From Myxococcales bacterium (GTDB lineage: Bacteria; Myxococcota_A; Polyangia; Polyangiales; DASUME01), in contig JASGJH010000001.1 in the NCBI GenBank assembly GCA_047601445.1, positions 8,064,001-8,128,000 on the forward strand: DNA of 64,000 bases, in the 5' to 3' direction. The position numbers and the translations under genes are program-made. The notes under the pieces were generated by a model. It had not been told where the DNA came from, made no database searches, and saw only the letters and a list, made by a program, of their open reading frames with translations. Shown in pieces: positions 1 through 15,595 of the stretch; positions within the stretch are counted from its first letter, which is position 1; the number at the start of each line of letters is the position of its first letter.

Positions 1-1065
1 GGCGATCGGCTCGCCTCGTGTACCGCGACTTGTCATCTGCCCGAGTGTCGTGCGGGCTGCACCTGCGAGTGGTACGGCGGCGTGCGCTACATGTTCTGTG
101 CAGAGCAACTCACGGAGGTTCAGGCGCGGGCTGCCTGCGAAGACCTCGGCATGCGGCTGGTGCGGATCGGCACGGGCACGGAGCACACCTTCCTGCGCCA
201 ACGCACGCTGCAGGACGGCTACGGCAAGTTCCATCTCGGCGCCACTGACGAAGCTTCGGAGGGCACCTGGGTCTGGAATGATGGAACCGCGTTCTGGATG
301 GGGGTCGCGAACGGTGCGCCGATCAACGGGGAGTTCACCGCATGGGCGCCGGGGGAGCCAAACGCCTTCGTCGCAGGCGAGAACTGTAGCGAGGTGCAGA
401 GCATGCAGGGCTGGAACGACTGCACCTGCGATCAAGTGAAGCCCTTCGTGTGCAAGGAGCAGCGTGATCCCCTTGCAGTCTGCGGTGACGGCGTCGTCGG
501 CCCGGGCGAGGCCTGTGACGGCAGCAGCGTACTGTGCGATGACGACTGCTCGCCTGCGATCTGCGGCGACGGCGTCGCGAACGCAGCCGCTGGGGAGCAG
601 TGCGATGACGCTGCGACGCAGCAGTATTGTCAGCCCGACTGCACGGCCCGCGTGTGCCCTGCGGGTTGCTCATGCCTGCAGGTCGCAGGGCGTAGCTTCG
701 CAGTATGTCCGAGCGCCAAGACGTTCGGAGAAGCGGGGGTCGCATGTGGCCGCGCCGGGATGACGCTCGCACGCGTGCAGAGCTCGACCGTGGATCAAGC
801 CCTACGCGGCGCGGCCACAGGCGCCGGCATCGGTGAGTACTGGATCGGCGTGTTCGACATCGATCAGGCCGATCGCTGGCTGCGCAGCGATCTGTCTCCC
901 GCCTGGAACGGGACCGCGACCGGCACAGCGCAGGGCTATGCGAACTTTACGACCGGCGCGCCCTCGGGCGCCAGCAATCAGGACTGCCTCGCCGTGCTGC
1001 CGACGGGCAAGTGGCAGGACCGCAGCTGCACCGTGCAGAAGCCGTACGCCTGCGAGCAGCTCTGA
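1..1065 (+). CDS. C-type lectin domain protein with myxobacterial Cys-rich repeats (5'-truncated by window edge)
   Basis: Frame is open from base 1 (GDRLASCTATCHLPEC...). Two CTLD-like domains (LGATD..EGTWVW..WAPGEPN..C..WND.C; YWIG..DC..WQD.SC..YACE) flank CGDGV..GEACD / CGDGV..GEQCDD repeats. Confidence 0.85.
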   Translation, partial: GDRLASCTATCHLPECRAGCTCEWYGGVRYMFCAEQLTEVQARAACEDLGMRLVRIGTGTEHTFLRQRTLQDGYGKFHLGATDEASEGTWVWNDGTAFWMGVANGAPINGEFTAWAPGEPNAFVAGENCSEVQSMQGWNDCTCDQVKPFVCKEQRDPLAVCGDGVVGPGEACDGSSVLCDDDCSPAICGDGVANAAAGEQCDDAATQQYCQPDCTARVCPAGCSCLQVAGRSFAVCPSAKTFGEAGVACGRAGMTLARVQSSTVDQALRGAATGAGIGEYWIGVFDIDQADRWLRSDLSPAWNGTATGTAQGYANFTTGAPSGASNQDCLAVLPTGKWQDRSCTVQKPYACEQL

Positions 1066-1084: not shown

Positions 1085-2422
1085 TCACCTCAACGCTTCG
1101 AAGTTGGTCCACGGCTGCGAGGGGCGATCCCTCATGTAGCCGTCGAGCCAGTTCCATTGCGGGTGGCGCTTCATGAAGGCCTGGGCGTCGAAGGGTTGGC
1201 CGCAGGCGCGTCCCCAACGAGCCCACAGGGATAGGCGCTCGGCCATGCGGCTGTCGGCGACCTTGGCGTCGCAGGCGCCCCATGGGTTGTAGGGGCCGTG
1301 TTCGGAGACGCCGACCCGGGCGTCGTCGACTTCCAAGTGGCCGCAGATGGTGCGCGAGCTTGGGTGGTCGTCCTGCTCGAGGTACACGTCGTGGTGATCG
1401 GCGATCATGAGCTTGGCGGTCTCGACGTCGATCTTGCCGCGGTGCTGCTCGGCGAGTTGCATCCAGCGCAGGCGTCGCGCGCCGTTGCGGCGGATGTCGG
1501 TGAAGTCGTCGCCTTCGCCGACGCACTCCTGGTTGCGGATCTTGAGGTCGGTGGCGGTGTTGAAGCCGCAGTAGAAGCCGTCCTTGGTGGTCTGGAGGCC
1601 GGCGTGGTGGAGTCCGAGCTCGTAGTGAGCGATCTCGTTGGTCTTGGTGTCTCCGAGCAGCCAGCTGTTGGCGTAGCCGCCGTTGTTGCTGGTGGAGAAG
1701 AGTTTGCACCACTCGGAGATACTGTTGGCGTACTGGCTGGCCTTGCGGGAACGGTAGAACTCGGGCGAGCCCGAAGGGACGTAGCCGACGAAGTTCGAGA
1801 TGGTGGTCTCGGTGATCATCAGCCCTGCCGAGGTGAGCCAGAAGTCGGTCCCGCTCGCGATGTAGCCGGGCTCGCCCTGCATGAGGATGCGGTTTCCATC
1901 CTTCGGCACGATGTCGAAGATGATGTTGAAGGCGTCGCCGGCAGCGAAGCGGTCCCACGAGTTGTGCGCCATGACGATGCGGCCATCGCGCGTGTGTTTG
2001 CCGGTCGCTACGAAGGCGCTGCAGTGGTGTCCGCGTCGTCCCTGCCAGGGCTTGGGTCCGAGCTCGGGCTTTTGCTTCTGGACGTGGCTCGGCCACCAGC
2101 TGGAGAGCAGGTCCATGTAGCCGTTCCAGGCGAGTAGCGCCGAGTAGGGCACCTCGGCTCCCTCGGCAATGCCGTGGAGTTCGGCCGCGAACTCGTCATC
2201 CAGATGATCGGAGAACTGCTCGAGCGCGGCCTTCTTGAAGGTCTCGAAGCTCTCGCCGGTGTCCCAGGTGGCCAGGAATTCCGCCGTCCGAATGACGTCC
2301 TTGATTTCCTTGGCGAGCACCTTGCCGTGCTGCAATCCGCGCTCGTAGGGAGCGCCCTCCAGGTGTACGAACACCCAACCCGCCTGATCTCTTCGGACAG
2401 CAGGCTTATTCTTGTCGGCCAT
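1085..2422 (-). CDS. Ntn-hydrolase, peptidase C45 / phospholipase B-like family
   Basis: N-terminal GxPYERGxQHG motif; internal HH|CSAF autocleavage site with Cys nucleophile; HNSW; ETTI; NNGGYANSW. No signal peptide. RBS GAGGAGG. Confidence 0.85.
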   Translation of the reverse strand: MADKNKPAVRRDQAGWVFVHLEGAPYERGLQHGKVLAKEIKDVIRTAEFLATWDTGESFETFKKAALEQFSDHLDDEFAAELHGIAEGAEVPYSALLAWNGYMDLLSSWWPSHVQKQKPELGPKPWQGRRGHHCSAFVATGKHTRDGRIVMAHNSWDRFAAGDAFNIIFDIVPKDGNRILMQGEPGYIASGTDFWLTSAGLMITETTISNFVGYVPSGSPEFYRSRKASQYANSISEWCKLFSTSNNGGYANSWLLGDTKTNEIAHYELGLHHAGLQTTKDGFYCGFNTATDLKIRNQECVGEGDDFTDIRRNGARRLRWMQLAEQHRGKIDVETAKLMIADHHDVYLEQDDHPSSRTICGHLEVDDARVGVSEHGPYNPWGACDAKVADSRMAERLSLWARWGRACGQPFDAQAFMKRHPQWNWLDGYMRDRPSQPWTNFEALR

Positions 2423-2449
2423 CTGAAACCTCCTCTTCGGTGCGTGCGC

Positions 2450-3355
2450 TCAGTGCGGTCGTGCGTTCTGGCCCGGTCGCGCCGCGACCTCGGGGCGCTT
2501 CGGGAGGGGAGGAGGTTCCCCGGTCGACGGATAATCCGGAACCAACGGAAACTTGGGCGGGCCGTCGATGATGATCTGTGAGCTCACCTTCTGCTTCGCA
2601 TCGATCTGGATCAGCTCGCCAGAGCGCAAGAGGCGCCAGTCGGGGCTGTCGTCGAGGGGCTCGCTGGCCACCACCACGCACGGACGATCCGTCATGTGGT
2701 GAGAGTGAACGCCCAATTGACGGCTCGAGTAGTGGAGGGGACGTCCGCCATGTCGGCCACCCTTCTCGCGCTCGAGCACGTAGAGCTTGTCCGTCTCTGG
2801 GTAGCGAAAGGCGAACAGCTCCGTGGGCGTGGCGATCAAGCAGTTGATGGAGCAGACCGGGAGGTTGTCGACGACCCAGCGCACGGCGGCGTTCAGGCCG
2901 GCCTTGATGTCTCCGTTGTGTTGACGGATTTCCTTGGTGATCAGCGCGAAGTATCGCTCGGAGTCGGTCTGGCCTTTCACCAGTGAGCGCTCTTCACCGA
3001 GATAGGCCTCGAGCCGGTCGAGTCCGCCGAGCATGCCGTTGTGAGCGAAGATCCTGCCGTCCATGGTGAACGGATGGCAGTTCTCGGGCGTCTTGGGGCC
3101 GGTCGTCGCGAACCGAATGTGCGAGACGAACACTTGGGAATCGATCTTCTTCGCCTCGCGCCTGAAGGCGGGATCCTCGTACGCAGGGAGCGGCTCCTTG
3201 TCGAGGACGGGCGAGCCATCGGGCTTGAAGAACCCGAGGCCGGTGCCGTCTGGATTGCGCCTACTCTGATTCATGAGGCTGTCGGGCGCCTCGATTAGCC
3301 AGAACTTGGCGCTCACGCTCTCGGGCGCTGCGCTGAGACCAAACAGTCTGCACAT
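2450..3355 (-). CDS. Class II glutamine amidotransferase (EgtC/YafJ-like)
   Basis: M-C-R N-terminal nucleophile; NPDGTG; HIRFAT; NCHPF; FAHNG; GQTDSE; VASEPL. Confidence 0.9.
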   Translation of the reverse strand: MCRLFGLSAAPESVSAKFWLIEAPDSLMNQSRRNPDGTGLGFFKPDGSPVLDKEPLPAYEDPAFRREAKKIDSQVFVSHIRFATTGPKTPENCHPFTMDGRIFAHNGMLGGLDRLEAYLGEERSLVKGQTDSERYFALITKEIRQHNGDIKAGLNAAVRWVVDNLPVCSINCLIATPTELFAFRYPETDKLYVLEREKGGRHGGRPLHYSSRQLGVHSHHMTDRPCVVVASEPLDDSPDWRLLRSGELIQIDAKQKVSSQIIIDGPPKFPLVPDYPSTGEPPPLPKRPEVAARPGQNARPH

Positions 3356-3507
3356 AAACTCTCCCCCGGTGTGGTGACTTCTTCAATCTACCGGCCGATG
3401 CTCGCGACGCCACGACGTGCCGCGCATTCGCGCGACTTCCGACGTCGTGGCGATCTGCGCGGCCTGGTCCTCATTGCGTGCGCATGCGCGCAGAGCCGCT
3501 CGCGTGC

Positions 3508-4899
3508 CTAGCACTTGATCGAGCGCTTGTAGTGATCGTGCAGCACGGGCGGCGTCGCGTTGCCGCCATGCTTCTCCAGATAGGCGATGGCCGACTCGAG
3601 GTCGTTGGCAAGGATGTTGACGCAGTCGTGGTTGAGATGAGGGCGAACGACGATACGCAGGGTGCGCACGTCCTGGGCGTCGGGCGGCATGGTGTAGGCC
3701 GAGACCACCCAGCCCTTTTCGCGGACCTTGTTGGAGATGTCGAACTCGTTGTAGTTCTTGATGCCCGGCTTGAGCGACATCGCCACCACGGGGATGCGCT
3801 GGGTCTTGTTGAGGAGGTCGAACTTGCCGGTCTTCAGCAACCGCTCGCGCAGGAAGATCGAGTTGTCCAGAGCGTGCTGCATGATGCGCGTGTAGCCGTC
3901 GCGGCCCAGGCGCAGCATCTGGTAGTACTGCATCAGCACGGTGGCCGCGCCCTTGCTGAAGTTGAGCGTGGCAGTGGGGGCCTCGCCACCCAGATAGTTC
4001 ACGTAGAACACGAGGTCCTCTGGGTACACGGAGCGCTCGCGGAACACGATCCAGCCGAGGCCCGGGTAGACCAGGCCGAACTTGTGGCCCGAGGTGTTGA
4101 TCGACTTGACGCGCGGGAAGCGGAAGTCCCAGGCGTAGTCGGGGTAGAGGAAGGGGTTCACGAAGCCACCCGAAGCGGCGTCGATGTGCATCGGGATGGA
4201 GATGCCGGTGCGACGCTCGTAGTCGTCGAGCCAGTCGTGGATGCCCTTGATGTCGTCGTCTTCGCCCGTGAAAGTCTGGCCGGCGATGGCCACCACGCAG
4301 GTGGTGTTTTCGTCGACGAACTCTGCGAGCCGCTCGGGCGTGAGGCGGTAGTCGCCGCGTTTGAGCGGGACGATGCGGGGCTCCACGTCGAAGTAGCGCA
4401 TGTACTTCTTCCAGACGATCTGCACGTTGCCGCCGGTGACGAGGTTGGGACGGCTGGCATCCTTGCCCGCCTGTTGGCGCTGCGCGCGCCAGTTCCACTT
4501 GTGGGCGAGGCCGCCGAGCATGCAGGCCTCTGACGAGCCGATGGTCGCCGCGCCGTAGGCCTCGACGCCCTTGGGGCCGTTCCACAGGTCGTGCAACCAG
4601 TTCACGACCTTGGACTCGGTGAGCTTGGTGTGCGGGTACATGTCGGGGTCGGCGAAGTTCTTGTGCGCGTGCTCCACGTAGATGTCGCGCAGCTCGGGCT
4701 CGACGAAGGTCGTCACGAACGACGAGAGGTTCAGCTCGGGGTTGGCGTCCGTCCAGGTCTCGCTGTTGACGATGGCCTTCGCCGCGCGCGCGCTGATGCC
4801 CGTCTCGGGAAACTCGGTCGGGATCTCGATGTTGAACTGATCGTAAGGAGTGACCGCGGCGACCTTGGAAAGCTCGCGTTCTCCGCTTGGACTTAGCAT
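3508..4899 (-). CDS. gadB: Glutamate decarboxylase (PLP-dependent)
   Basis: NLSSFVTT; TIGSSEACMLGG; VWKKY..YFDVE; HIDAASGGF; SINTSGHKFGLVYPG with the PLP lysine. Start moved to ATG 4899 after AAGGAG. Confidence 0.93.
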   Translation of the reverse strand: MLSPSGERELSKVAAVTPYDQFNIEIPTEFPETGISARAAKAIVNSETWTDANPELNLSSFVTTFVEPELRDIYVEHAHKNFADPDMYPHTKLTESKVVNWLHDLWNGPKGVEAYGAATIGSSEACMLGGLAHKWNWRAQRQQAGKDASRPNLVTGGNVQIVWKKYMRYFDVEPRIVPLKRGDYRLTPERLAEFVDENTTCVVAIAGQTFTGEDDDIKGIHDWLDDYERRTGISIPMHIDAASGGFVNPFLYPDYAWDFRFPRVKSINTSGHKFGLVYPGLGWIVFRERSVYPEDLVFYVNYLGGEAPTATLNFSKGAATVLMQYYQMLRLGRDGYTRIMQHALDNSIFLRERLLKTGKFDLLNKTQRIPVVAMSLKPGIKNYNEFDISNKVREKGWVVSAYTMPPDAQDVRTLRIVVRPHLNHDCVNILANDLESAIAYLEKHGGNATPPVLHDHYKRSIKC

Positions 4900-4943
4900 G
4901 GCGTGTAACTCCTTCTTTCTTTCACGGTACCCACCGCGCGCCC

Positions 4944-6182
4944 TCAAAGTGTTCGCCGCGGTGGCACCAGGCTACCCGCGAGCATCAATCCGGTGGCGAG
5001 GGCTACCGCGACCAGCAGCGCGGAAAAGCCGATGCGTACCCCTTCCAGGGGCTGTGCGGCCACGAGCGCGCTCGCGCTGCGATAGCCGAGGGCACCGGGC
5101 ACCAGCACGAGCACGCCGGGCACGCTGGTGAGCAGAGCAGGGCGCTCCAGGTGTCGCGCGAGCGCGTTACCGGTGGCGCCCACCACGAACGCTCCTACGA
5201 ACGAACCGATCTCGACCCCGAACAAGGGACTCACCGTACGTCCACTGAGGAAGCCGATCAGTCCGGCGAGGAAGAACCAGCCGAGGTCGCGCAGCTCGGT
5301 GCGCAGCCGCATGGCGAGCCCGAGCACGGCCGGACCGAGCATGCAGAGCTGGGCAGGCAGCGACCAGGCGATGCGCTCCGTGGGCGCCACGGTCGCTGGC
5401 AAGACGCGCTGAAGCTGCGTGCCAACCGCGACGCCGAAGATCAACTGCGCGAACACCAGGCTCGCTCCGATGAGTCGTGCGCTGCCGGTCACAACGTCCT
5501 TCGACGCTAGCTCCTCCGCAGCCGTGACGAGCGAAAGGCCCGGCAAGAGTGGGATCAGTGCTCCGACGATGGCGGCTTCTCGGGCGAGCGGCGGCCAGGT
5601 GGCTGCGAGCCATGTAACGGTCGCTCCAGCGATCACGCCGGCCAGCGCGGTGAACTCGCGCGTGAACTTTCGGTGCCGTTCGGCCAGCAGTTCGCCGGCA
5701 TCCAGTAGTGCTCCGGCCAGCGCGGCGGCGACCGCTTCACGAAGGCCACCTCCGAGCAGGCCACACCATCCGGCTGCGCCGAGTGCGGCCATGAGCATGC
5801 GCAGCGCGGACGAGACCGGCGTTGTGCGCATGCCAAACAGCCCCACATCGCGTCTACGTGCCGCCAGCTGCGCGAGCTCGAGGCGCGCCGCTGCGGGTGC
5901 GAGCGAACCATCGAGGAGCCGGTGCACGATGCGGTCCAGCACGGTGAGTGCGCCGAGGTCCACATCCGTAGGAGTCACGCGCGTGAGGGACGTGCGAGAG
6001 TGTTCCTCTGCCTCGAACGTGACGATAAGGGCTGTCACGGTGGCGAAGACCTCGACCTCGATGCCCAGACGCTGTGCCACTTCCTCCAGCGCGAGCTCGA
6101 CGTGACGGCACGGCACGCCGTGGCGCTGCAGCATGCGCCCGAGTTCGAGGATGAGGGCTCTGTGCGATTCGGTGTCCGACAC
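4944..6182 (-). CDS. Threonine/serine exporter (ThrE) family membrane protein
   Basis: LG..L...G....VE N-terminus; DLGAL; duplicated L(L/V)PG helical motifs; about 10 hydrophobic segments. Confidence 0.85.
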   Translation of the reverse strand: MSDTESHRALILELGRMLQRHGVPCRHVELALEEVAQRLGIEVEVFATVTALIVTFEAEEHSRTSLTRVTPTDVDLGALTVLDRIVHRLLDGSLAPAAARLELAQLAARRRDVGLFGMRTTPVSSALRMLMAALGAAGWCGLLGGGLREAVAAALAGALLDAGELLAERHRKFTREFTALAGVIAGATVTWLAATWPPLAREAAIVGALIPLLPGLSLVTAAEELASKDVVTGSARLIGASLVFAQLIFGVAVGTQLQRVLPATVAPTERIAWSLPAQLCMLGPAVLGLAMRLRTELRDLGWFFLAGLIGFLSGRTVSPLFGVEIGSFVGAFVVGATGNALARHLERPALLTSVPGVLVLVPGALGYRSASALVAAQPLEGVRIGFSALLVAVALATGLMLAGSLVPPRRTL

Positions 6183-6407
6183 GGAGCTTTCCGTTCAGGG
6201 TTTGTCCGACGCAGTCGATCTTTCGACATACAGCGTGGCACATGTTTGCCGCGCCATTGAGTCACACGCGCACTCTCGGCGCGCCGCACGCGTTTGCACC
6301 TCATCTCGTGCTTACGTGTCGGCGCGCGACAGACCACGAAGCTCGAGTAGAGTGATGAAACGAGGCGGCCGACGGTCGACTCTACGCGGCGAACGTCCGG
6401 GGGTTGT

Positions 6408-8213
6408 ATGTGCGGAATCTGCGGCGAAATCAGGTTCGATCTCGCAGGTAAGACGGCGTCCGTGGACGTCGCGGCAGTGGACAGGATGACGGCTGCAATG
6501 AGCACGCGGGGGCCCGACGCAAGTGGTGTCGTGGCGCGTAGTCGCATTGCGTTCGGTCACCGTCGCTTGCGCATCATCGACCTCTCCGAGCACGCGGAGC
6601 AGCCCATGGTCGATGCGGACCTCGGGCTCTCCATCGTCTTCAATGGCGCCATTTACAACTACAAGGAGCTGCGCGCCGAGCTCGAGGGGCGCGGTCGCCG
6701 CTTCTTCTCGCATGGAGATACCGAGGTCATTCTCAAGGCCTACGCGGAGTGGGGCGAACGTTGCGTGGAGCGCTTGAGCGGCATGTTCGCCTTCGCAATC
6801 TGGGAGCGCGATAGCGGTCGCGTGTTTCTCGCCCGTGACCGCCTGGGCATCAAGCCGCTCTATTTGGCGCCCCTGGCCGACGGGATTCGCTTCGCGTCCA
6901 GCGTGCCGGCGTTGCTTGCGTCGGGCGGGATCGACACGGAAATCGACCCGGTGGGCTTGCACCACTACATGACCCTGCATGCCATCGTGCCCGCGCCACG
7001 CACCTTGCTGCGGGGCGTGCAGAAGCTGGAGCCCGGCACCACGCTGACCATCGAGAGTGATGGCAGGCAGCGTCGTCGGCGCTACTGGGGGCTCACCTTC
7101 ATGACGCCCGAGGCCGATCGCGAGACCTCGCTGGCTGGGTTTCAGGATCGTGTGCTGGCCACGCTGCGCCGCAGCGTCCGGCGGCGCACCGTGGCGGACG
7201 TGCCAGTCGGTGTGTTGCTTTCAGGCGGGTTCGACTCGAGCCTGATCGTGGCGCTGTTGACCGAGCTCGCCACGGGCCCCGTCGAGACGTTCTCCATCGG
7301 CTTCGAGTCCGTGGGTTCCGAGACCGGCGACGAGTTCCATTACTCCGACCTCATCGCGCGTCACTTCGGTACGCGCCACCATCGCATCTTCGTCGACTCG
7401 GCCACGGTGATCGACCACATCCCGGGCTGCGTCGCGGCCATGAGCGAGCCCATGGTGAGCCACGACGTGATCGGCTTTTACCTGCTGAGTCGGGAGGTTT
7501 CCAAGCACGTCAAGGTGGTGCAGAGCGGACAGGGCGCGGACGAGATCTTCGCGGGATACCGCTGGTACCCGCCGCTGTTGGCGGCGGATGGCGAAGACAG
7601 CGTGGAGGCCTATCGGCGTCTCTTTTTCGACCGCGATCACGCGGCCTACCGCGAGGCCGTGCACCCGCGCTTCGCGGGCGACGACCATACGCTGCGCTTC
7701 GTGGCGGAGCACTTTGCCAGGCCGGGGGCGGCGCGCACCATTGATCGTGCGCTGCGCATCGACTCCACCGTGATGCTGGTCGAGGACCCCGTGAAGCGAG
7801 TGGACAACATGACCATGGCCTGGGGCCTCGAGGGGCGTGTTCCGTTCCTCGACCACGAGGTCGTGGAGTGCGCCGCCGCCATCCCGGCGGAGTTCAAGAC
7901 GCCGCACGGGGGGAAACACGTGGTCAAGCAGGCCACGCGACATCTCTTGCCCGCCGAAGTGGTGGATCGTCCCAAGGGCTCGTTTCCGGTGCCCACACTC
8001 GTCTATCTTCGCGGGCCGCAGCTCGAGCTGGCGCGCGAGGCCGTGACCTGCCGCGCTGCCCGTGAGCGCGGCCTGTTCCAGGAGGCCTACGTCCAGAAAC
8101 TGTTGAGGGACCCAGAGAAGTACATCACGCCGCTAAAGGGGTCGGAGCTGTGGCAAATCGCCGTGCTCGAGATGTGGCTTCAGACCCACGTGGATGGAGC
8201 GTTCAAGTCATGA
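6408..8213 (+). CDS. Asparagine synthase-like amidotransferase, N-acetylglutaminylglutamine (NAGGN) amidotransferase type
   Basis: MCGICGE; GHRRL.IIDL; FNGAIYNY; RDRLGIKP; LLSGGFDSS; subfamily-typical EPMVSHD, VVQSGQGADE, LVEDPVKRVDNMTMAWGLE, WQIAVLEMWLQ. Confidence 0.9.
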   Translation: MCGICGEIRFDLAGKTASVDVAAVDRMTAAMSTRGPDASGVVARSRIAFGHRRLRIIDLSEHAEQPMVDADLGLSIVFNGAIYNYKELRAELEGRGRRFFSHGDTEVILKAYAEWGERCVERLSGMFAFAIWERDSGRVFLARDRLGIKPLYLAPLADGIRFASSVPALLASGGIDTEIDPVGLHHYMTLHAIVPAPRTLLRGVQKLEPGTTLTIESDGRQRRRRYWGLTFMTPEADRETSLAGFQDRVLATLRRSVRRRTVADVPVGVLLSGGFDSSLIVALLTELATGPVETFSIGFESVGSETGDEFHYSDLIARHFGTRHHRIFVDSATVIDHIPGCVAAMSEPMVSHDVIGFYLLSREVSKHVKVVQSGQGADEIFAGYRWYPPLLAADGEDSVEAYRRLFFDRDHAAYREAVHPRFAGDDHTLRFVAEHFARPGAARTIDRALRIDSTVMLVEDPVKRVDNMTMAWGLEGRVPFLDHEVVECAAAIPAEFKTPHGGKHVVKQATRHLLPAEVVDRPKGSFPVPTLVYLRGPQLELAREAVTCRAARERGLFQEAYVQKLLRDPEKYITPLKGSELWQIAVLEMWLQTHVDGAFKS

Positions 8214-9235
8214 CACTGTTCAAACCCGGCGCCGCACGGACCAAATCCGGCGGCCTATGGCGGTTCTTCCCCGCGTCTCACCTGGCAGACGCGAGCCTCG
8301 ATCCTTCGTCACGGTTGATCCTCGCGGAGGCCATGCGACGCGGCATCGAGGTCGAGATCCTGGACGAGCGCGCGGAGTTCTTCCGCTTGACCCAGGGTGG
8401 GCGGTCGGTGATGTGCCGGGAGTCGCTGAGCGAGCTGACTTCGGCCATCGCGCTGACCCGCTGCGACGACAAGCGCCTCACGGCGCGCTTTCTGGGCGCG
8501 GCTGGCATCCGCATGCCTCCGCAGATCGAAGCCGACATCCCCGAACGCAACGAGTCCTTCTTGGAGGAGCATCGCTCGATCGTGGTGAAGCCCGCGCGCG
8601 GAGAGCAAGGGCGCGGCGTGAGCATCGGGATTCGCAGCCTGGAAGCCATGCACCAGGCCATCGAACACGCTCGCGAGGTGGGCGGGCCGGTGGTGCTGGA
8701 GCAGGTGGTCACGGGAGAAGACGTGCGGATGGTCGTGATCGACTTCCGCGTGGTGGCGGTGGCGGTGCGCAGGCCGCCACGCGTCGTGGGCACGGGACGG
8801 CACACCATGGCCGAACTGATCGCAGAGGAGAGCAAGCGTCGCTCCGCCGCCACACACGGCGCGAGCCGGATTCCCTTCGACGCCGAGACGCGCCGCTGCG
8901 TTCGCGAGTCCGGCTACGAGCTCGAGGACGTGCCACCCGCGGGCCGCGAGGTCGTCGTGCGCAAAGGGGCGAACGTTCACACGGGAGGCGGCATCTACGA
9001 CGTGACCTCGGAGATCGCGCCGGCGTTGATCGAGGTGGCAGAGAAGGCTGCCCGGGTGCTCGATATTCCCGTTGTTGGGATCGACATGATCGTGCCGTCG
9101 ATCCACGGTCATGAATACTGGATCATCGAGGCCAATGAGCGGCCGGGACTCGCGAACCACGAACCGCAGCCCACTGCGGCGCGCTTCGTGGACTTGCTGT
9201 TTCCACCGTCAGTCGGGCCGCTCGACGGAGGTTGA
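8210..9235 (+). CDS. ATP-grasp ligase homologous to the C-terminal half of Ngg (NAGGN synthetase); GNAT domain absent
   Basis: EAMRRGIEVE; CRESLSELTSA; CDDK; VVKPARGEQGRG; ANVHTGG; IEANERPGLANHEPQPTA. ATG 8210 overlaps the upstream TGA (ATGA). Confidence 0.85.
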   Translation: MTLFKPGAARTKSGGLWRFFPASHLADASLDPSSRLILAEAMRRGIEVEILDERAEFFRLTQGGRSVMCRESLSELTSAIALTRCDDKRLTARFLGAAGIRMPPQIEADIPERNESFLEEHRSIVVKPARGEQGRGVSIGIRSLEAMHQAIEHAREVGGPVVLEQVVTGEDVRMVVIDFRVVAVAVRRPPRVVGTGRHTMAELIAEESKRRSAATHGASRIPFDAETRRCVRESGYELEDVPPAGREVVVRKGANVHTGGGIYDVTSEIAPALIEVAEKAARVLDIPVVGIDMIVPSIHGHEYWIIEANERPGLANHEPQPTAARFVDLLFPPSVGPLDGG

Positions 9236-9300
9236 GGCGGCAAAGCCGCGGACGCATCGAGAGTACTGGTGAGCGAGGTACCCAACCGTGCGAGGTGTCT

Positions 9301-10887
9301 GTGGGCGCGGAAATCAAAAACGAACACTTCAGCGACGCCGAGCGAGCACTGTTCGCCCGGCGGCTGCGCTCGAGCTTGGGGGCGCTGGATACGATGCTGC
9401 GACGCCCGGGCTTCGGCCTCGGGGAGCGCAGCATCGGCGTCGAGCTCGAGATGTTCCTGGTGGACGAGCGCGGGCGCGCGAAGCCAGTGGGGCAGGAGGT
9501 CGCCCGTCTCGCGGACGACGCTTGCATCACGCCCGAGATCGGGCGCTTCGACATCGAGTACAGCACGCCTCCGCTGATGTTGGCCGGGCACCCGTTCTCG
9601 GAGCTGCGCGCGCGCATGCAGCACGCCGACGCCAAGGTGCGTGGGTGCGCCGCCAAGCTGGGGGCCCGCGCCGTCCCCGTCAGCATCTTGCCCACGCTGC
9701 AGCGCGACGATTTCGGCGCTCACACCATCACCGATATGCCGCGCTATCGGGCACTCGCGAGCAACATGTACCTCTCGCGGCGCGCTCCGTTCCAGATTTG
9801 TATCAGTGGGGACGACCCGCTGCGGATGAGCGCCGACGACGTGGCCATGGAGTCCGCCAACACCGGCTTCCAGATTCATCTGAAGGTATCGCCGTCCGAA
9901 TTCGCCAGCTTCTTCAACGCCGCTCAGATGCTGACTGGCCCGGTGCTGGCGGCCGCGGGCAACTCCCCCACGTTTCTTGGCCATCGGCTGTGGCACGAGA
10001 CGCGCATCGCGCTGTTCAAGCAGGCGGGCGATGACCGCCCGGCGGATGGCCACACGGGCTTTCGCTTGCCGGCTCGGGTCGGCTTCGGCACGGGCTGGGT
10101 GCGGGACGGGGCCGCGGAGGTCTTCGCGGAGAGCGTGGCCTTGCACGAGCTCCTGCTGGCCGAGTGCAGCAACGAAGATCCGGAGGCGGCGCTCCGTGCG
10201 GGGCGCGTCCCCAAGCTCTCGGAGCTGCGCTTGCACCACGGGACCGTCTGGCGCTGGAATCGTCCGGTCTACGATCCCACGGCCGGTGGTTCACTGCGCA
10301 TCGAGCTGCGGGCGCTGCCTTCGGGACCCACCATCGAGGACATGATCGCCAACGCAGCCGTGCTCATCGGCGCGATCATCGCGCTGGCGCCGCGCATGCG
10401 AACCTTGCTGCCCGCGTTCCCGTTTGCGCTCGCAGAGCGCAACTTCTATCGGGCCGCGCAGCACGGCCTGGACGCGGAGATGGCTTGGCCTCCGGACGCG
10501 CACTGCGCTCCCGCGGCCAGGTCCGCCCGGCAGCTTCTGCTCGAGACGGTGCTCCCGCTGGCGCGCGAAGGCCTGCGCAGCGCGGGCGTGGCCCAGGCAG
10601 AGGCCGATGCGGCGTTGGCTGTCTTCGAACAGCGCGTCCAGTCTCGCCAGACGGGCGCCGCTTGGCAGCGCGCCATCTTCGAGGCTCTGGTGGAGCGCAG
10701 CGTGCCCCGGGAGTGGGCTCTCGCCGGATTGCTCGAGCGCTACCTAGCCAATGTGGAGACCGGACGGCCCGTGGGGGTATGGCCCGCCGAGCTGGACGCC
10801 AACGTCTTGCCCCAGGAAGCCGCCTGGATGCGCGGTGCGCTCCTCGAGCCGGGCGGGCCCGAGGGGACGAGGGTGCAAGATGTGTGA
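9301..10887 (+). CDS. Glutamate--cysteine ligase (GCS2) family gamma-glutamyl ligase
   Basis: IGVELE; EIGRFDIEY; ILPTL; PRYRAL; ESANTGFQIHL; NSP; LWHETRI.LF.Q; HHGTVWRWNRP; RIELRALPSGPT. GTG start at 9301 after GAGG. Confidence 0.88.
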   Translation: MGAEIKNEHFSDAERALFARRLRSSLGALDTMLRRPGFGLGERSIGVELEMFLVDERGRAKPVGQEVARLADDACITPEIGRFDIEYSTPPLMLAGHPFSELRARMQHADAKVRGCAAKLGARAVPVSILPTLQRDDFGAHTITDMPRYRALASNMYLSRRAPFQICISGDDPLRMSADDVAMESANTGFQIHLKVSPSEFASFFNAAQMLTGPVLAAAGNSPTFLGHRLWHETRIALFKQAGDDRPADGHTGFRLPARVGFGTGWVRDGAAEVFAESVALHELLLAECSNEDPEAALRAGRVPKLSELRLHHGTVWRWNRPVYDPTAGGSLRIELRALPSGPTIEDMIANAAVLIGAIIALAPRMRTLLPAFPFALAERNFYRAAQHGLDAEMAWPPDAHCAPAARSARQLLLETVLPLAREGLRSAGVAQAEADAALAVFEQRVQSRQTGAAWQRAIFEALVERSVPREWALAGLLERYLANVETGRPVGVWPAELDANVLPQEAAWMRGALLEPGGPEGTRVQDV

Positions 10888-11737
10888 GCTCCTCGGAATC
10901 GTCTCGAATCAACCGGTCGACGTGGACTTCTCGTTCGCGTACTTCGCGCTGCGCGGCGGCCAAACCGGTCCGCATGCGGACGGCTGGGGCCTCTCGCTCT
11001 ACGAGGGGCTGTTCGCACGCACGTTCCTCGAGCCCCATCCGGCCTACACCAGCAGGCTGGCCAAGTTCCTCCGCGAGAACCCCATCTACACGCCGCTGGC
11101 GGTGGCGCACGTGCGCAGAATGACGCGGGGGGACGCGGCCATCGAGAATACCCATCCGTTCCTCCGCGTGTGGCACAAGCGGCACATCGCGTTTGCGCAC
11201 AACGGTACCTTGCCGAACGTGTGGAAGATCCCGCTGCACAACGAGAGCACGATTGGAGGCACGGACAGCGAGCACGCCTTCTGCGTCCTGTTGGAGCGTT
11301 TGCGCGACGCCTACCCTGACGACTACCCGAGCGACCCCGTGGCGCTGGGTCGCAAGCTCTTCGAGATCGGAAACGAGCTCGGAGCGGATGGCGTGTTCAA
11401 TTTCCTGTTTGCCGACGGTGAGCACTTGTTCGCCCGTTGCGGTGACAACTTGGCGCTGGTCGAGCGACGGGCGCCCTTTGGGCACGCGACGCTGGTTGAC
11501 GCGGATGTGCGGGTCCACTTCGGTGACGTGATGGGACCGAGCAACCACGGGCGCATGGCGGTGGTCGCCACCGAGCCGCTGACCCGTGACGAGCCGTGGG
11601 AGAAGGCGGCTCCCGGCACGCTCTGGGTGTTGGGCAAAGGGGAGGTCCTGGCGACGTTCCGGCCCGCTGGCAAGGCGGCGGAGGTCGCAGCAGAGGTCGC
11701 GTTCGCGGCGCGCCATGGCGCGCACCGCGGACACTGA
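10880..11737 (+). CDS. Class II glutamine amidotransferase (YafJ-like)
   Basis: MCELLG; RGGQTGPHADGWG; AHVRR; NTHPF; FAHNG; GTDSE; VATEPLT. Start overlaps the end of the ligase gene. Confidence 0.9.
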   Translation: MCELLGIVSNQPVDVDFSFAYFALRGGQTGPHADGWGLSLYEGLFARTFLEPHPAYTSRLAKFLRENPIYTPLAVAHVRRMTRGDAAIENTHPFLRVWHKRHIAFAHNGTLPNVWKIPLHNESTIGGTDSEHAFCVLLERLRDAYPDDYPSDPVALGRKLFEIGNELGADGVFNFLFADGEHLFARCGDNLALVERRAPFGHATLVDADVRVHFGDVMGPSNHGRMAVVATEPLTRDEPWEKAAPGTLWVLGKGEVLATFRPAGKAAEVAAEVAFAARHGAHRGH

Positions 11738-11745
11738 CACCGACA

Positions 11746-12588
11746 CTAGGCGCGAGCGGGAGCGCGGGGTCTGAACGGGCGCACGTCCAAGTTGCCTGCC
11801 TGGACCACCAGGGCGCTCGCGACCGGGACCTCGCGCCACGCGCCATGGAGCTTGACGAGTGGCTCGGACACGATGGTGCGTGCGTCCCCTGCGAAGTGAC
11901 GCAACCGCTCGCGCTCGGGATACAGCGTGCGCACGGCATCGATGTTCTCGCTGACGAACAGCGTGTTGGCCTGTTTGGTTCCGCTCGCGTAGCGAATGCC
12001 GTAGAGGTGCTCGCCGTCGCTCACGCCCAGCGTCATCTGCAGCGGATTGGGGATGCGGTGTCGTGCGGCCACCTCCTCGACGAAGCCGGCCATCTGCTCG
12101 AGGGCGCCGAGCGGGTCGTCTTCCAGACCGAAGGTCAGCGCGAGGTGGAACAGCAGCTCGGAGTCGGTGGAACCACGGATGTTGTTGAACAACTCGGGAT
12201 TCACCGCGAGCAGGAGCTCACGGTGGATGGTGTTGAAGTCGGCCACGTAGCCATTGTGGACGAAGAGCCAGCGTCCGTAGCGAAACGGGTGGCAGTTGGT
12301 CTCCTGGACCGGCGAGCCGGTGGCCGCCCGAATGTGCGCGAGGAACAGCCTGGACTCGACTTGCGCGGCGATCTCTCGCAGATTGTTGTCGCCCCACGCG
12401 GGCGCGGCGTTGCGGTAGATGCCCGGCTCGGCACGCTGGCCGTACCAGCCGAGGCCGAGGCCGTCACCGTTGAGGCCGTTCTCGTAGAACTCCGAGGCCT
12501 GGCTCTGAGCGATCAGTGAGTGCTCGGGCTCGTACAAGAGTTCTTCCGGTCGGATCGGCTGTCCAAAGTAACCCACCCATCTGCACAT
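11746..12588 (-). CDS. Class II glutamine amidotransferase (EgtC/Dug3-like)
   Basis: MCRWVGY; HSLIAQS; NGDGLGLGWY; PAWGD.NL; AHIRAAT; NCHPF; HNG; GSTDSE; VSEPL. RBS AAGGAGG. Confidence 0.9.
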   Translation of the reverse strand: MCRWVGYFGQPIRPEELLYEPEHSLIAQSQASEFYENGLNGDGLGLGWYGQRAEPGIYRNAAPAWGDNNLREIAAQVESRLFLAHIRAATGSPVQETNCHPFRYGRWLFVHNGYVADFNTIHRELLLAVNPELFNNIRGSTDSELLFHLALTFGLEDDPLGALEQMAGFVEEVAARHRIPNPLQMTLGVSDGEHLYGIRYASGTKQANTLFVSENIDAVRTLYPERERLRHFAGDARTIVSEPLVKLHGAWREVPVASALVVQAGNLDVRPFRPRAPARA

Positions 12589-14806: not shown

Positions 14807-15595
14807 ATGGTGAGCGTGGGCCCTTGGCTGGTGGTCGTGTGCGGCGTGTCGGGCGTGGGAAAAAGCACGGTCGGAGAGGCCCTGGCGGAATGGCTCGAAC
14901 TGCCCTACGCGGACGGGGACTCGTTTCACTCCTCGGAGAGCATCGCCAAGATGGCGGCCGGCCACGCCCTCGATGACCAGGAGCGTGCACCGTGGCTCGC
15001 GCGCATCGAGTCCTTTCTCGAGGCGAAGCAGGAGAGTGGGGCGGTGGTGAGTTGCTCGGCGCTCACGCGGGCGCATCGTCGGAAGCTCCTCGAAGCGGGA
15101 GCGCAGGTGACCTTTTTGCAGCTGGTGGCAAAGCCCGCGTTGGTCCGCACGCGCATGCTTGCGCGGCAGCATCATTTCATGAGTCCGTCACTGCTCGATT
15201 CACAACTCAGCCTACTCGAGCCCCTGGGTGTGGACGAACCCGGTTTGCGGCTCGACATCGACGACCTCACTCCGGGCGAGATCGCAGCGATGTTCGCGGG
15301 CTACTTGCGAGAGCAAGAGGACGCAGCGTTCGCGATCGACCCACTCGACGGAGAGCTCGACCTGCACACCTTCGCGCCCGAGGAAGCGGCGGACGTGGTG
15401 CGAGAGTACGTGCTTGCCTGTCAGGCCAAGGGGGTGCTCGCGTTGCGCATCGTGCACGGGAAGGGCAAGGGCACCCTACGCAGGACCGTTCACGCCGTGC
15501 TCGGCAGCATGCCCGAGGTGCGCGCCTTCCGTCTGGCGGGGCCGGAGCGTGGTGGATGGGGAGCGACGCTGGTGGACCTTCGAGCAGATTCCTAA
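14807..15595 (+). CDS. Gluconokinase (GntK/IdnK) fused to a C-terminal Smr/MutS2 domain
   Basis: P-loop [41 protein letters not shown]. Then [23 protein letters not shown]. Confidence 0.85.

Follow-up and report, generated by a model that had tools for sequence, protein, structure and literature searches.

We analyzed a 64,000-nucleotide stretch of a Myxococcales genome (GenBank assembly GCA_047601445.1, contig JASGJH010000001.1, positions 8,064,001 to 8,128,000), hereafter called the window; the source genome is one contig of 9.5 Mb. Nine genes at window positions 1085 to 12588 include four that encode an AsnO-type amidotransferase, an Ngg-type ATP-grasp ligase without the GNAT domain, a long GCS2-fold ligase, and a class II glutamine amidotransferase (GATase). 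We think it somewhat probable that these four genes, the core, work as a single pathway for making a small gamma-glutamyl peptide amide. A preliminary description of the locus had proposed that a small glutamyl amide is made, independently of nonribosomal peptide synthetases, and cleaved by a gene set unlike known pathways. Both ideas are supported for the right arm, whose genes occur together in relatives and fit no characterized pathway that we found. The same description had placed all nine genes in a single pathway that included gamma-aminobutyrate (GABA), processing by a C45 enzyme, and export by ThrE; this is not supported, and the genes do not travel as a unit. The core genes are as follows.

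6408..8213, + strand: AsnO-type amidotransferase of the N-acetylglutaminylglutamine amide (NAGGN) kind, 601 amino acids (TIGR03104); predicted C-terminal carboxyl amidation
8210..9235, + strand: GNAT-less Ngg-type ATP-grasp ligase, 341 amino acids (part of TIGR03103); predicted second ligase
9301..10887, + strand: long GCS2-fold carboxylate-amine ligase, about 528 amino acids (PF04107); predicted gamma-glutamyl ligase
10880..11737, + strand: GAT2, a class II GATase like PDB 1TE5 (PF13230); predicted gamma-glutamyl hydrolase

The ATP-grasp ligase matches only positions 236 to 544 of the 547-position Ngg model TIGR03103 (470 bits against a cut-off of 569), and because the match is limited to this C-terminal part, we identify the protein as Ngg without its GNAT domain. 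The preliminary description had correctly called it an ATP-grasp ligase but missed this origin. Neither the rest of the window's genome nor five relatives yielded an Ngg-type GNAT. The protein belongs to the family of the cyanophycin synthetase G domain and GshF, and is 55% identical to the C-terminal part of Sinorhizobium meliloti Ngg, about 55 to 60% identical to Ngg, and 23 to 25% identical to GshF. Its structure model (pLDDT 88.6) resembles CphA1, GshF, and CphA2, with the nearest solved folds at a TMq of about 0.75. The best 120 database matches include 59 short proteins, 54 of which form a clade of 55 with the query (SH-aLRT 100 in a quick IQ-TREE run); the other five nest within full-length Ngg and are mostly fragment-like. 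Judged from the alignments and this tree, the short GNAT-less ATP-grasps are a real subfamily. Close homologs carry the source names Polyangiales, Polyangiaceae, Myxococcaceae bacterium, and Sorangium. Outside the genus, strong matches occur only in open frames of at least 582 amino acids, which is Ngg length (401 genomes of the phylum and 401 of the order). A genome-collection scan with the ATP-grasp alone gave only two distant loci, and a metagenome scan, used mainly as a control set, gave one short-clade locus among 80. Many short-clade proteins are mis-annotated as "GNAT-family acetyltransferase" despite having no GNAT domain.

Loss of the domain coincides with a change in one motif. Set against 59 full-length proteins, the 55 members of the short clade show D-P-[ST]-S where Ngg has N-P-Y-A. 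The N-P-Y is invariant in all 59 full-length proteins, and its first and third positions are changed to D and [ST] in 54 of the 55 short ones; the window protein has DPS. The catalytic residues and the GEQG, NxHxGG, and ERPGLANHEPQP stretches remain Ngg-like, and the acceptor-side residues are the same as in Ngg. In the accessible text of a study of CphA2, activity depends on T163 of StCphA2, or S148 of GcCphA2, which touches the donor chain at its side branch (bioRxiv 10.1101/2023.04.15.537035). Our PDB profile match pairs profile position 21 (Pro) with CphA2 chain residue 147, so the Tyr-to-Ser site would be S148. The changed Ngg position thus appears to correspond to S148/T163, a predicted contact with the acyl-donor side branch.

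The AsnO scores far above its cut-off (TIGR03104, 949 bits against 570), carries the MCG start and an SGGFDSS motif, and is 58.5% identical to an S. meliloti pSymB protein. AsnOs of the window's genus form a clade (support 1.0; the AsnO and GCS2 trees were made with FastTree) nested among Ngg-linked AsnOs. A separate AsnO clade (support 1.0) holds four actinobacterial proteins and one from a genome designated G474. In all four actinobacterial loci that we fetched, from six such records in the plasmid collection, a YbdK-type ligase lies directly upstream of asnO and no Ngg match occurs within 5 kb of it. In G474, a fusion of YbdK with a circularly permuted (CP) ATP-grasp takes the place of the YbdK ligase. 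The YbdK domain aligns only marginally with the window GCS2 (E 0.055). AsnO without a GNAT is therefore found twice alongside a gamma-glutamyl-type ligase. We weighed whether the G474 asnO belongs to the core of the window and decided against it, given its AsnO clade and its fusion partner. The YbdK-asnO loci are L235-L238 (Nonomuraea, two Streptomyces, and Embleya) and L229:2164-6647 (G474); a long alpha/beta hydrolase gene follows asnO in both annotated Streptomyces loci.

The GCS2-like ligase matches PF04107 with 29 bits against a cut-off of 21. Its GTG start at 9301 was chosen from homolog starts, and the open frame extends back to a TTG at 9232. It keeps the invariant GxExE, E, H, and RxExR residues, with GVELE as its version of the GhExE signature that has been described for carboxylate-amine ligases (PMC2588565, as far as its accessible text goes). 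Its model (pLDDT 94.5) has the fold of glutamate-cysteine ligase and YbdK, with yeast glutamate-cysteine ligase 3IG5 as the best match (TMq 0.68). Of 351 genomes from another family, 23 have a match to this GCS2 at E of 1e-150 or below, and we read 17 of the loci. All 16 with 57 to 60% GCS2 identity, from three genera, have a CP ATP-grasp of about 450 amino acids next, with a weak match to PF14403. GAT2 comes third in 15 of them; the 16th locus is too short to show it. The single 52% homolog read has neither the CP ATP-grasp nor GAT2. The unit common to these sister loci and the window is therefore ligase, ATP-grasp, and hydrolase. No AsnO or Ngg-type gene was found in the 16 loci, and neither AsnO over cut-off nor a short Ngg-type ligase occurs anywhere in five sister-clade genomes checked. 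The sister CP ATP-grasp, in turn, has no match in the window's genome. In the GCS2 tree, a 34-row sister clade stands beside the 62-row window clade, and the 163 columns that both clades conserve all have the identical residue. Named Sorangium proteins fall in the sister clade, whose operon loci are L253-L259 (G869, G802, G708, G738, G820, G763, and G736) and L239-L252, all of family f17 and three genera. From the sister layout, it is likely that the window's genus filled the second-ligase slot with a GNAT-less Ngg plus AsnO.

More distant long GCS2 homologs lie beside AstE/AspA-family deacylases and CBS-domain proteins (L176, L178, L183, L186, and L187), and many open frames of about 650 amino acids among them suggest CBS fusions. 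A second long GCS2 paralog in the window's genome, about 46 to 47% identical, has no cluster gene nearby (L029:8684-10246; G000:C1:576728-578200).

All three class II GATases of the cluster match PF13230, and GAT2 does so with an E of 9e-91 (6e-57 to PDB 1TE5). GAT2 comes after GCS2 in the genus, just as it closes the sister-clade operon. Against the EgtC model TIGR03442, the three GATases score 92, 32, and 171, the last being GAT3, with a cut-off of 219. The other two GATases are linked to the cluster in part. A 69% ortholog of GAT3 lies directly 3' of GCS2 in one relative, G007, and on a separate contig in another, G004; a 75% ortholog of GAT1 is divergent from asnO in G007, and a 66% ortholog lies beside the glutamate decarboxylase (GAD) gene in G004. 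These links indicate that the extra GATases are not random neighbors, and they leave some room for shared handling of glutamate or glutamine.

How often do the core genes occur together? Our genus sample comprised 10 genomes, the window's own (G000) and nine relatives. The short ATP-grasp is present in seven, and asnO, short ATP-grasp, close GCS2, and class II GATase are together in six. The core is a single block in five genomes, in three arrangements. G004 has asnO, ATP-grasp, GCS2, and GAT2 in the order of the window; G007 has asnO, ATP-grasp, and GCS2 followed by the GAT3 ortholog in place of GAT2; and in G003 and G009, asnO-ATP-grasp is divergent from GCS2-GAT2. In G002, the halves are on two contigs that end at facing points with no shared overlap, leaving their adjacency unproven. 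G006 (89% complete) has only the short ATP-grasp, facing a GAT2 without the N-terminal Cys (L022:5368-7205); asnO and close GCS2 were not found there, and the locus is probably a deletion remnant. A gene that looks similar to this GAT2 also lies downstream of the short ATP-grasp at L035. No asnO, short ATP-grasp, or close GCS2 was found with these queries in G001, G005, and G008. Overall, asnO and close GCS2 are jointly present in six genomes and jointly absent in four.

As a control, we examined 90 loci, 78 of them with the Ngg GNAT. None of these 78 full-length Ngg loci has a GCS2-like or GATase gene. The M42 peptidase is present in 52 of the 58 full-Ngg loci with 1.3 kb downstream, and its model TIGR03106 found none in the six core genomes (G000 and five core-bearing relatives). 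In a proxy test on contigs of at least 4 kb, 11 of 24 short ATP-grasps share an exact contig size with one of the top 120 GCS2 matches, compared with 0 of 43 others. Near the core of some relatives we noted a divergent glutathione-disulfide reductase gene (NF004776 above cut-off) about 2.1 kb upstream of asnO in G004 (L023:3931-5289), and genes for a thiamine pyrophosphate-dependent enzyme and an aldehyde dehydrogenase directly 3' of the short ATP-grasp in G003 (L026:1709-4752) and G002 (L024:5692-8807).

Taken as one pathway, the core would begin with the GCS2-fold enzyme, which would cap an amino acid with a gamma-glutamyl group to give gamma-Glu-X. The GNAT-less Ngg-type ATP-grasp would then add a second amino acid, giving for example gamma-Glu-X-Gln, and AsnO would amidate the C terminus to yield a gamma-Glu-X-Y amide. 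The class II GATase could remove the cap for turnover or release, as Dug2/Dug3 do on glutathione. The gamma-glutamyl group would thereby replace the acetyl cap that the GNAT domain of Ngg makes in NAGGN synthesis. What we observed is the gene content, the missing GNAT domain, the clade, the altered motif, the joint occurrence of the genes, and the folds; from these we infer the order of the steps, the substrates, and the role of the product. The gamma-Glu-X route is the simplest reading because the GNAT is gone, the donor motif has changed, the acceptor side is kept, and a gamma-glutamyl ligase has joined. A tentative candidate for the product is gamma-Glu-Gln-Gln-NH2, and our best guess for its role is a compatible solute or nitrogen store. 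It is also possible, no more firmly than that, that the pathway is a hybrid, in which an acetyltransferase-less Ngg with a re-tuned donor site, together with AsnO, displaced the CP ATP-grasp of an older operon of gamma-glutamyl ligase, second ligase, and hydrolase, and now makes gamma-Glu-Gln-Gln-NH2 as an amide resembling an osmolyte.

Several points weigh against a single core pathway. The substrates of all core enzymes are predictions, and our searches found no characterized member of the long GCS2 subfamily or of this GATase subfamily. A gamma-glutamyl cap would leave a zwitterion, whereas NAGGN is neutral. The core loci reflect one evolutionary event, because all those read directly belong to one genus, and in G003 and G009 the two gene pairs are separate divergent units. 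G474 has GCS2-GAT2 in a genome without any Ngg-type ATP-grasp, and distant long GCS2 homologs pair with a deacylase or CBS protein and no ATP-grasp, which also speaks against a fixed triad. Among the 78 control loci, only 30 have 3 kb of room on both sides, and 43 have 3 kb downstream. The contig-size test is a proxy, and 13 of its 24 short ATP-grasps have no match within the top 120 GCS2 matches. The CphA2 residue mapping uses alignment start coordinates and assumes that chain numbering equals the numbering of the paper.

Another explanation, which we regard as rather unlikely, is that two separate two-gene units share a stress-regulated locus, with AsnO and the short Ngg making either NAGGN, from N-acetyl-Gln supplied by an unrelated GNAT, or uncapped Gln-Gln-NH2, and GCS2 and GAT2 making and cleaving a gamma-glutamyl dipeptide of their own. 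The two-plus-two layout, the G474 pair, and the distant GCS2 partners would all fit, as would the unchanged acceptor side and the generic GNAT matches that exist in the window's genome. However, an ATP-grasp sits next to GCS2 and ahead of GAT2 in all 16 sister-clade genomes examined, asnO and close GCS2 come and go together across the genus, and the donor-side motif altered together with GNAT loss. It is quite improbable that the product is instead a glutathione-like thiol amide (gamma-Glu-Cys-Gly-NH2 or similar), made by a split GshF with an amidotransferase and a Dug3-like hydrolase. GshF does belong to the family of the ATP-grasp, the closest GCS2 structures are glutamate-cysteine ligases, yeast Dug2/Dug3 split glutathione into Glu and Cys-Gly (PMC9804317, in its accessible part), and the reductase gene of G004 is nearby. 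Yet that reductase neighbors just one of six core loci, the ATP-grasp is far closer to Ngg than to GshF, and elsewhere the genome encodes its own GshB, scoring above cut-off, along with a GshA-like ligase (445 against a cut-off of 463).

Weighed against the same core pathway, polymerization by the short ATP-grasp is highly improbable; it would string gamma-glutamyl dipeptides together into a storage polymer resembling cyanophycin, the way CphA2 polymerizes beta-Asp-Arg. The family is the same, and the short ATP-grasp shares a P-S motif at the first helix with CphA1 and CphA2, not with Ngg, but the protein has no N or M domain, its nearest relatives are Ngg dipeptide ligases, and amidation by AsnO would cap a growing chain. 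The nine-gene reading, in which a single GABA-containing amide is made, deprotected, and exported, for instance with gamma-Glu-GABA as an intermediate, we hold to be very doubtful. The remaining features of the locus are as follows.

1085..2422, - strand: C45 Ntn hydrolase/acyltransferase (NF040521); likely accreted, probably by transfer
2450..3355, - strand: GAT1, class II GATase (PF13230); accessory
3508..4899, - strand: GAD, 463 amino acids (TIGR01788); likely accreted
4944..6182, - strand: ThrE-family exporter (PF06738 and PF12821); likely accreted
6183..6407, no strand: divergent intergenic gap, 225 bp
11746..12588, - strand: GAT3, an EgtC-like class II GATase, convergent (TIGR03442 below cut-off); accessory

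All nine open reading frames (ORFs) are intact where they were first described, and the gap and the two right-arm overlaps (4 nt for AsnO/ATP-grasp and 8 nt for GCS2/GAT2) are as reported. Successive genes are spaced by 27, 152, 44, 225, -4, 65, -8, and 8 bp. Profile scores upheld the family assignments, with AsnO, GAD, and C45 above curated cut-offs, and the expected catalytic motifs are seen in all eight enzymes. We found no sigma-70-like promoter site between 900 and 12900. In favor of one nine-gene pathway, the left-arm spacing is tight (27 to 152 bp), GAT1 is linked both to asnO (G007) and to GAD (G004), and G004 has the core plus GAD, GAT1, and GAT3 orthologs, although on different contigs.

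The distribution of the other left-arm genes argues the other way. C45 (NF040521, 149 bits against a cut-off of 85) has no counterpart in the nine genus relatives or in 300 genomes of the order, which speaks against it as a pathway step; it is 73 to 74% identical to Mycetohabitans plasmid proteins encoded after a ClcB-like channel gene, with no ligase or GAD in the neighborhood. ThrE has no close ortholog in the genus, which speaks against it as the proposed exporter. Matches of only 31 to 33% occur in three of the nine relatives, none on a core contig, and a paralog in G000 is 47% identical. GAD (TIGR01788, 538 bits against a cut-off of 380) has a close ortholog in only one of the nine relatives, which also speaks against the proposed GABA step: the 79% identical gene in G004 faces the GAT1 ortholog on a 2.5-kb contig apart from the core. 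G007 has a 44% identical homolog elsewhere in its genome, and GAD was not found in the other seven relatives; with this query a close GAD is missing in four of the five core-bearing ones (genomes 72 to 94% complete). GAD relatives at 70 to 80% include named Vibrio, Shewanella, and Mesorhizobium proteins. The neighborhood conservation check that had been suggested thus came out for the right arm and partly for GAT1 and GAT3, and against GAD, ThrE, and C45. The latter three are likely later neighbors in this genome, outside the core pathway, and the left arm is plausibly a GAD-based acid-resistance or GABA unit. Flanking the cluster, a protein with two C-type lectin stretches (PF00059; window 82-1065, +) is convergent with C45, and a single ORF at window 14807-15595 (+) fuses a gluconokinase (TIGR01313 above cut-off) to an Smr domain. 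About 11 to 13 kb 5' of the window start, integrase-like and helix-turn-helix-like ORFs, judged by eye, are possibly a mobile remnant (L028:1312-3499).

The core pathway that we favor shares parts with several known systems. Ligase plus gamma-glutamyl-cleaving class II GATase is the pairing of EgtA/EgtC, but this GCS2 has no EgtA (TIGR03444) match and all three GATases are below the TIGR03442 cut-off. Butirosin biosynthesis of the BtrI/J/K type links an acyl carrier protein and a decarboxylase with an ATP-grasp; here, in contrast, no carrier protein was found among the nine genes that fill 1085-12588 with gaps of at most 225 bp (ORFs of at least 100 amino acids considered), and GAD is unlinked to the core in relatives. 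The enzymes that make and degrade glutathione (GshA/GshB, GshF PDB 3LN6/3LN7, and yeast Dug2/Dug3) likewise combine a GCS-fold ligase, an ATP-grasp, and a GATase that cleaves the gamma-glutamyl bond. However, the GshF model NF002688 scores 144 against a cut-off of 425, the canonical glutathione genes are elsewhere in the genome, and the window adds terminal amidation.

In NAGGN synthesis, according to the accessible part of PMC8070244, Ngg acetylates one Gln and links it to another, AsnO amidates the product, and the osmoprotectant system of AsnO, Ngg, and M42 peptidase occurs in S. meliloti and as PA3459-PA3461 in P. aeruginosa. The window resembles it in having AsnO over cut-off, asnO directly before the ligase gene, and an Ngg-related ATP-grasp, and it may work like that system at the last two steps. 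Unlike it, the window has no GNAT domain, DP[ST] for NPY, an added GCS2-fold ligase and class II GATase, and no M42 peptidase, which is usual but not universal in the NAGGN system. The locus falls outside this system because it does not have the defining bifunctional GNAT plus ATP-grasp Ngg. The nearest folds are those of the CphA G domain and CphA2, as far as the accessible texts describe them (bioRxiv 10.1101/2023.04.15.537035 and PMC9427784), and equivalents of the catalytic Arg, Asp, Glu, and Asn are retained; unlike these, ours is a stand-alone 341-amino-acid domain with an Ngg-like acceptor loop and amidotransferase linkage.

The closest precedent is a set of operons predicted by comparative genomics, comprising a carboxylate-amine ligase, an ATP-grasp, and a glutamine-amidotransferase-like peptidase (PMC2588565, in the text accessible to us). 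The window shares with that class, as described there, the GhExE carboxylate-amine ligase with an ATP-grasp and an amidotransferase-like hydrolase alongside it, an arrangement kept from genome to genome. Two ligases, one of them of the gamma-glutamyl type, and a hydrolase would again predict a glutathione-like peptide, and the sister operon has that layout. The window differs, to judge from the same text, in its classical Ngg/CphA-type ATP-grasp, which is not circularly permuted (PF14403), in its AsnO, in a GCS2 of the long subfamily of about 500 amino acids, and in its class II hydrolase. By gene content, we regard the locus as a variant of this predicted class of amidoligase operons. Our literature search, with subscription papers and supplements outside it, returned no description of a GNAT-less Ngg or of an AsnO-GCS2 pairing.

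If the core is one pathway, its four enzymes would offer a route, open to direct tests, to a peptide amide that has yet to be described, and two orphan subfamilies, the long GCS2-fold ligases and this set of class II GATases, would gain their first working context. If the hybrid reading is true, the YbdK-asnO pairs of actinobacteria would represent a second, independent replacement of an acetyl cap by a gamma-glutamyl one, and many genes annotated as "NAGGN amidotransferase" would then make other amides. A match to asnO alone is insufficient to infer the capacity to make NAGGN.

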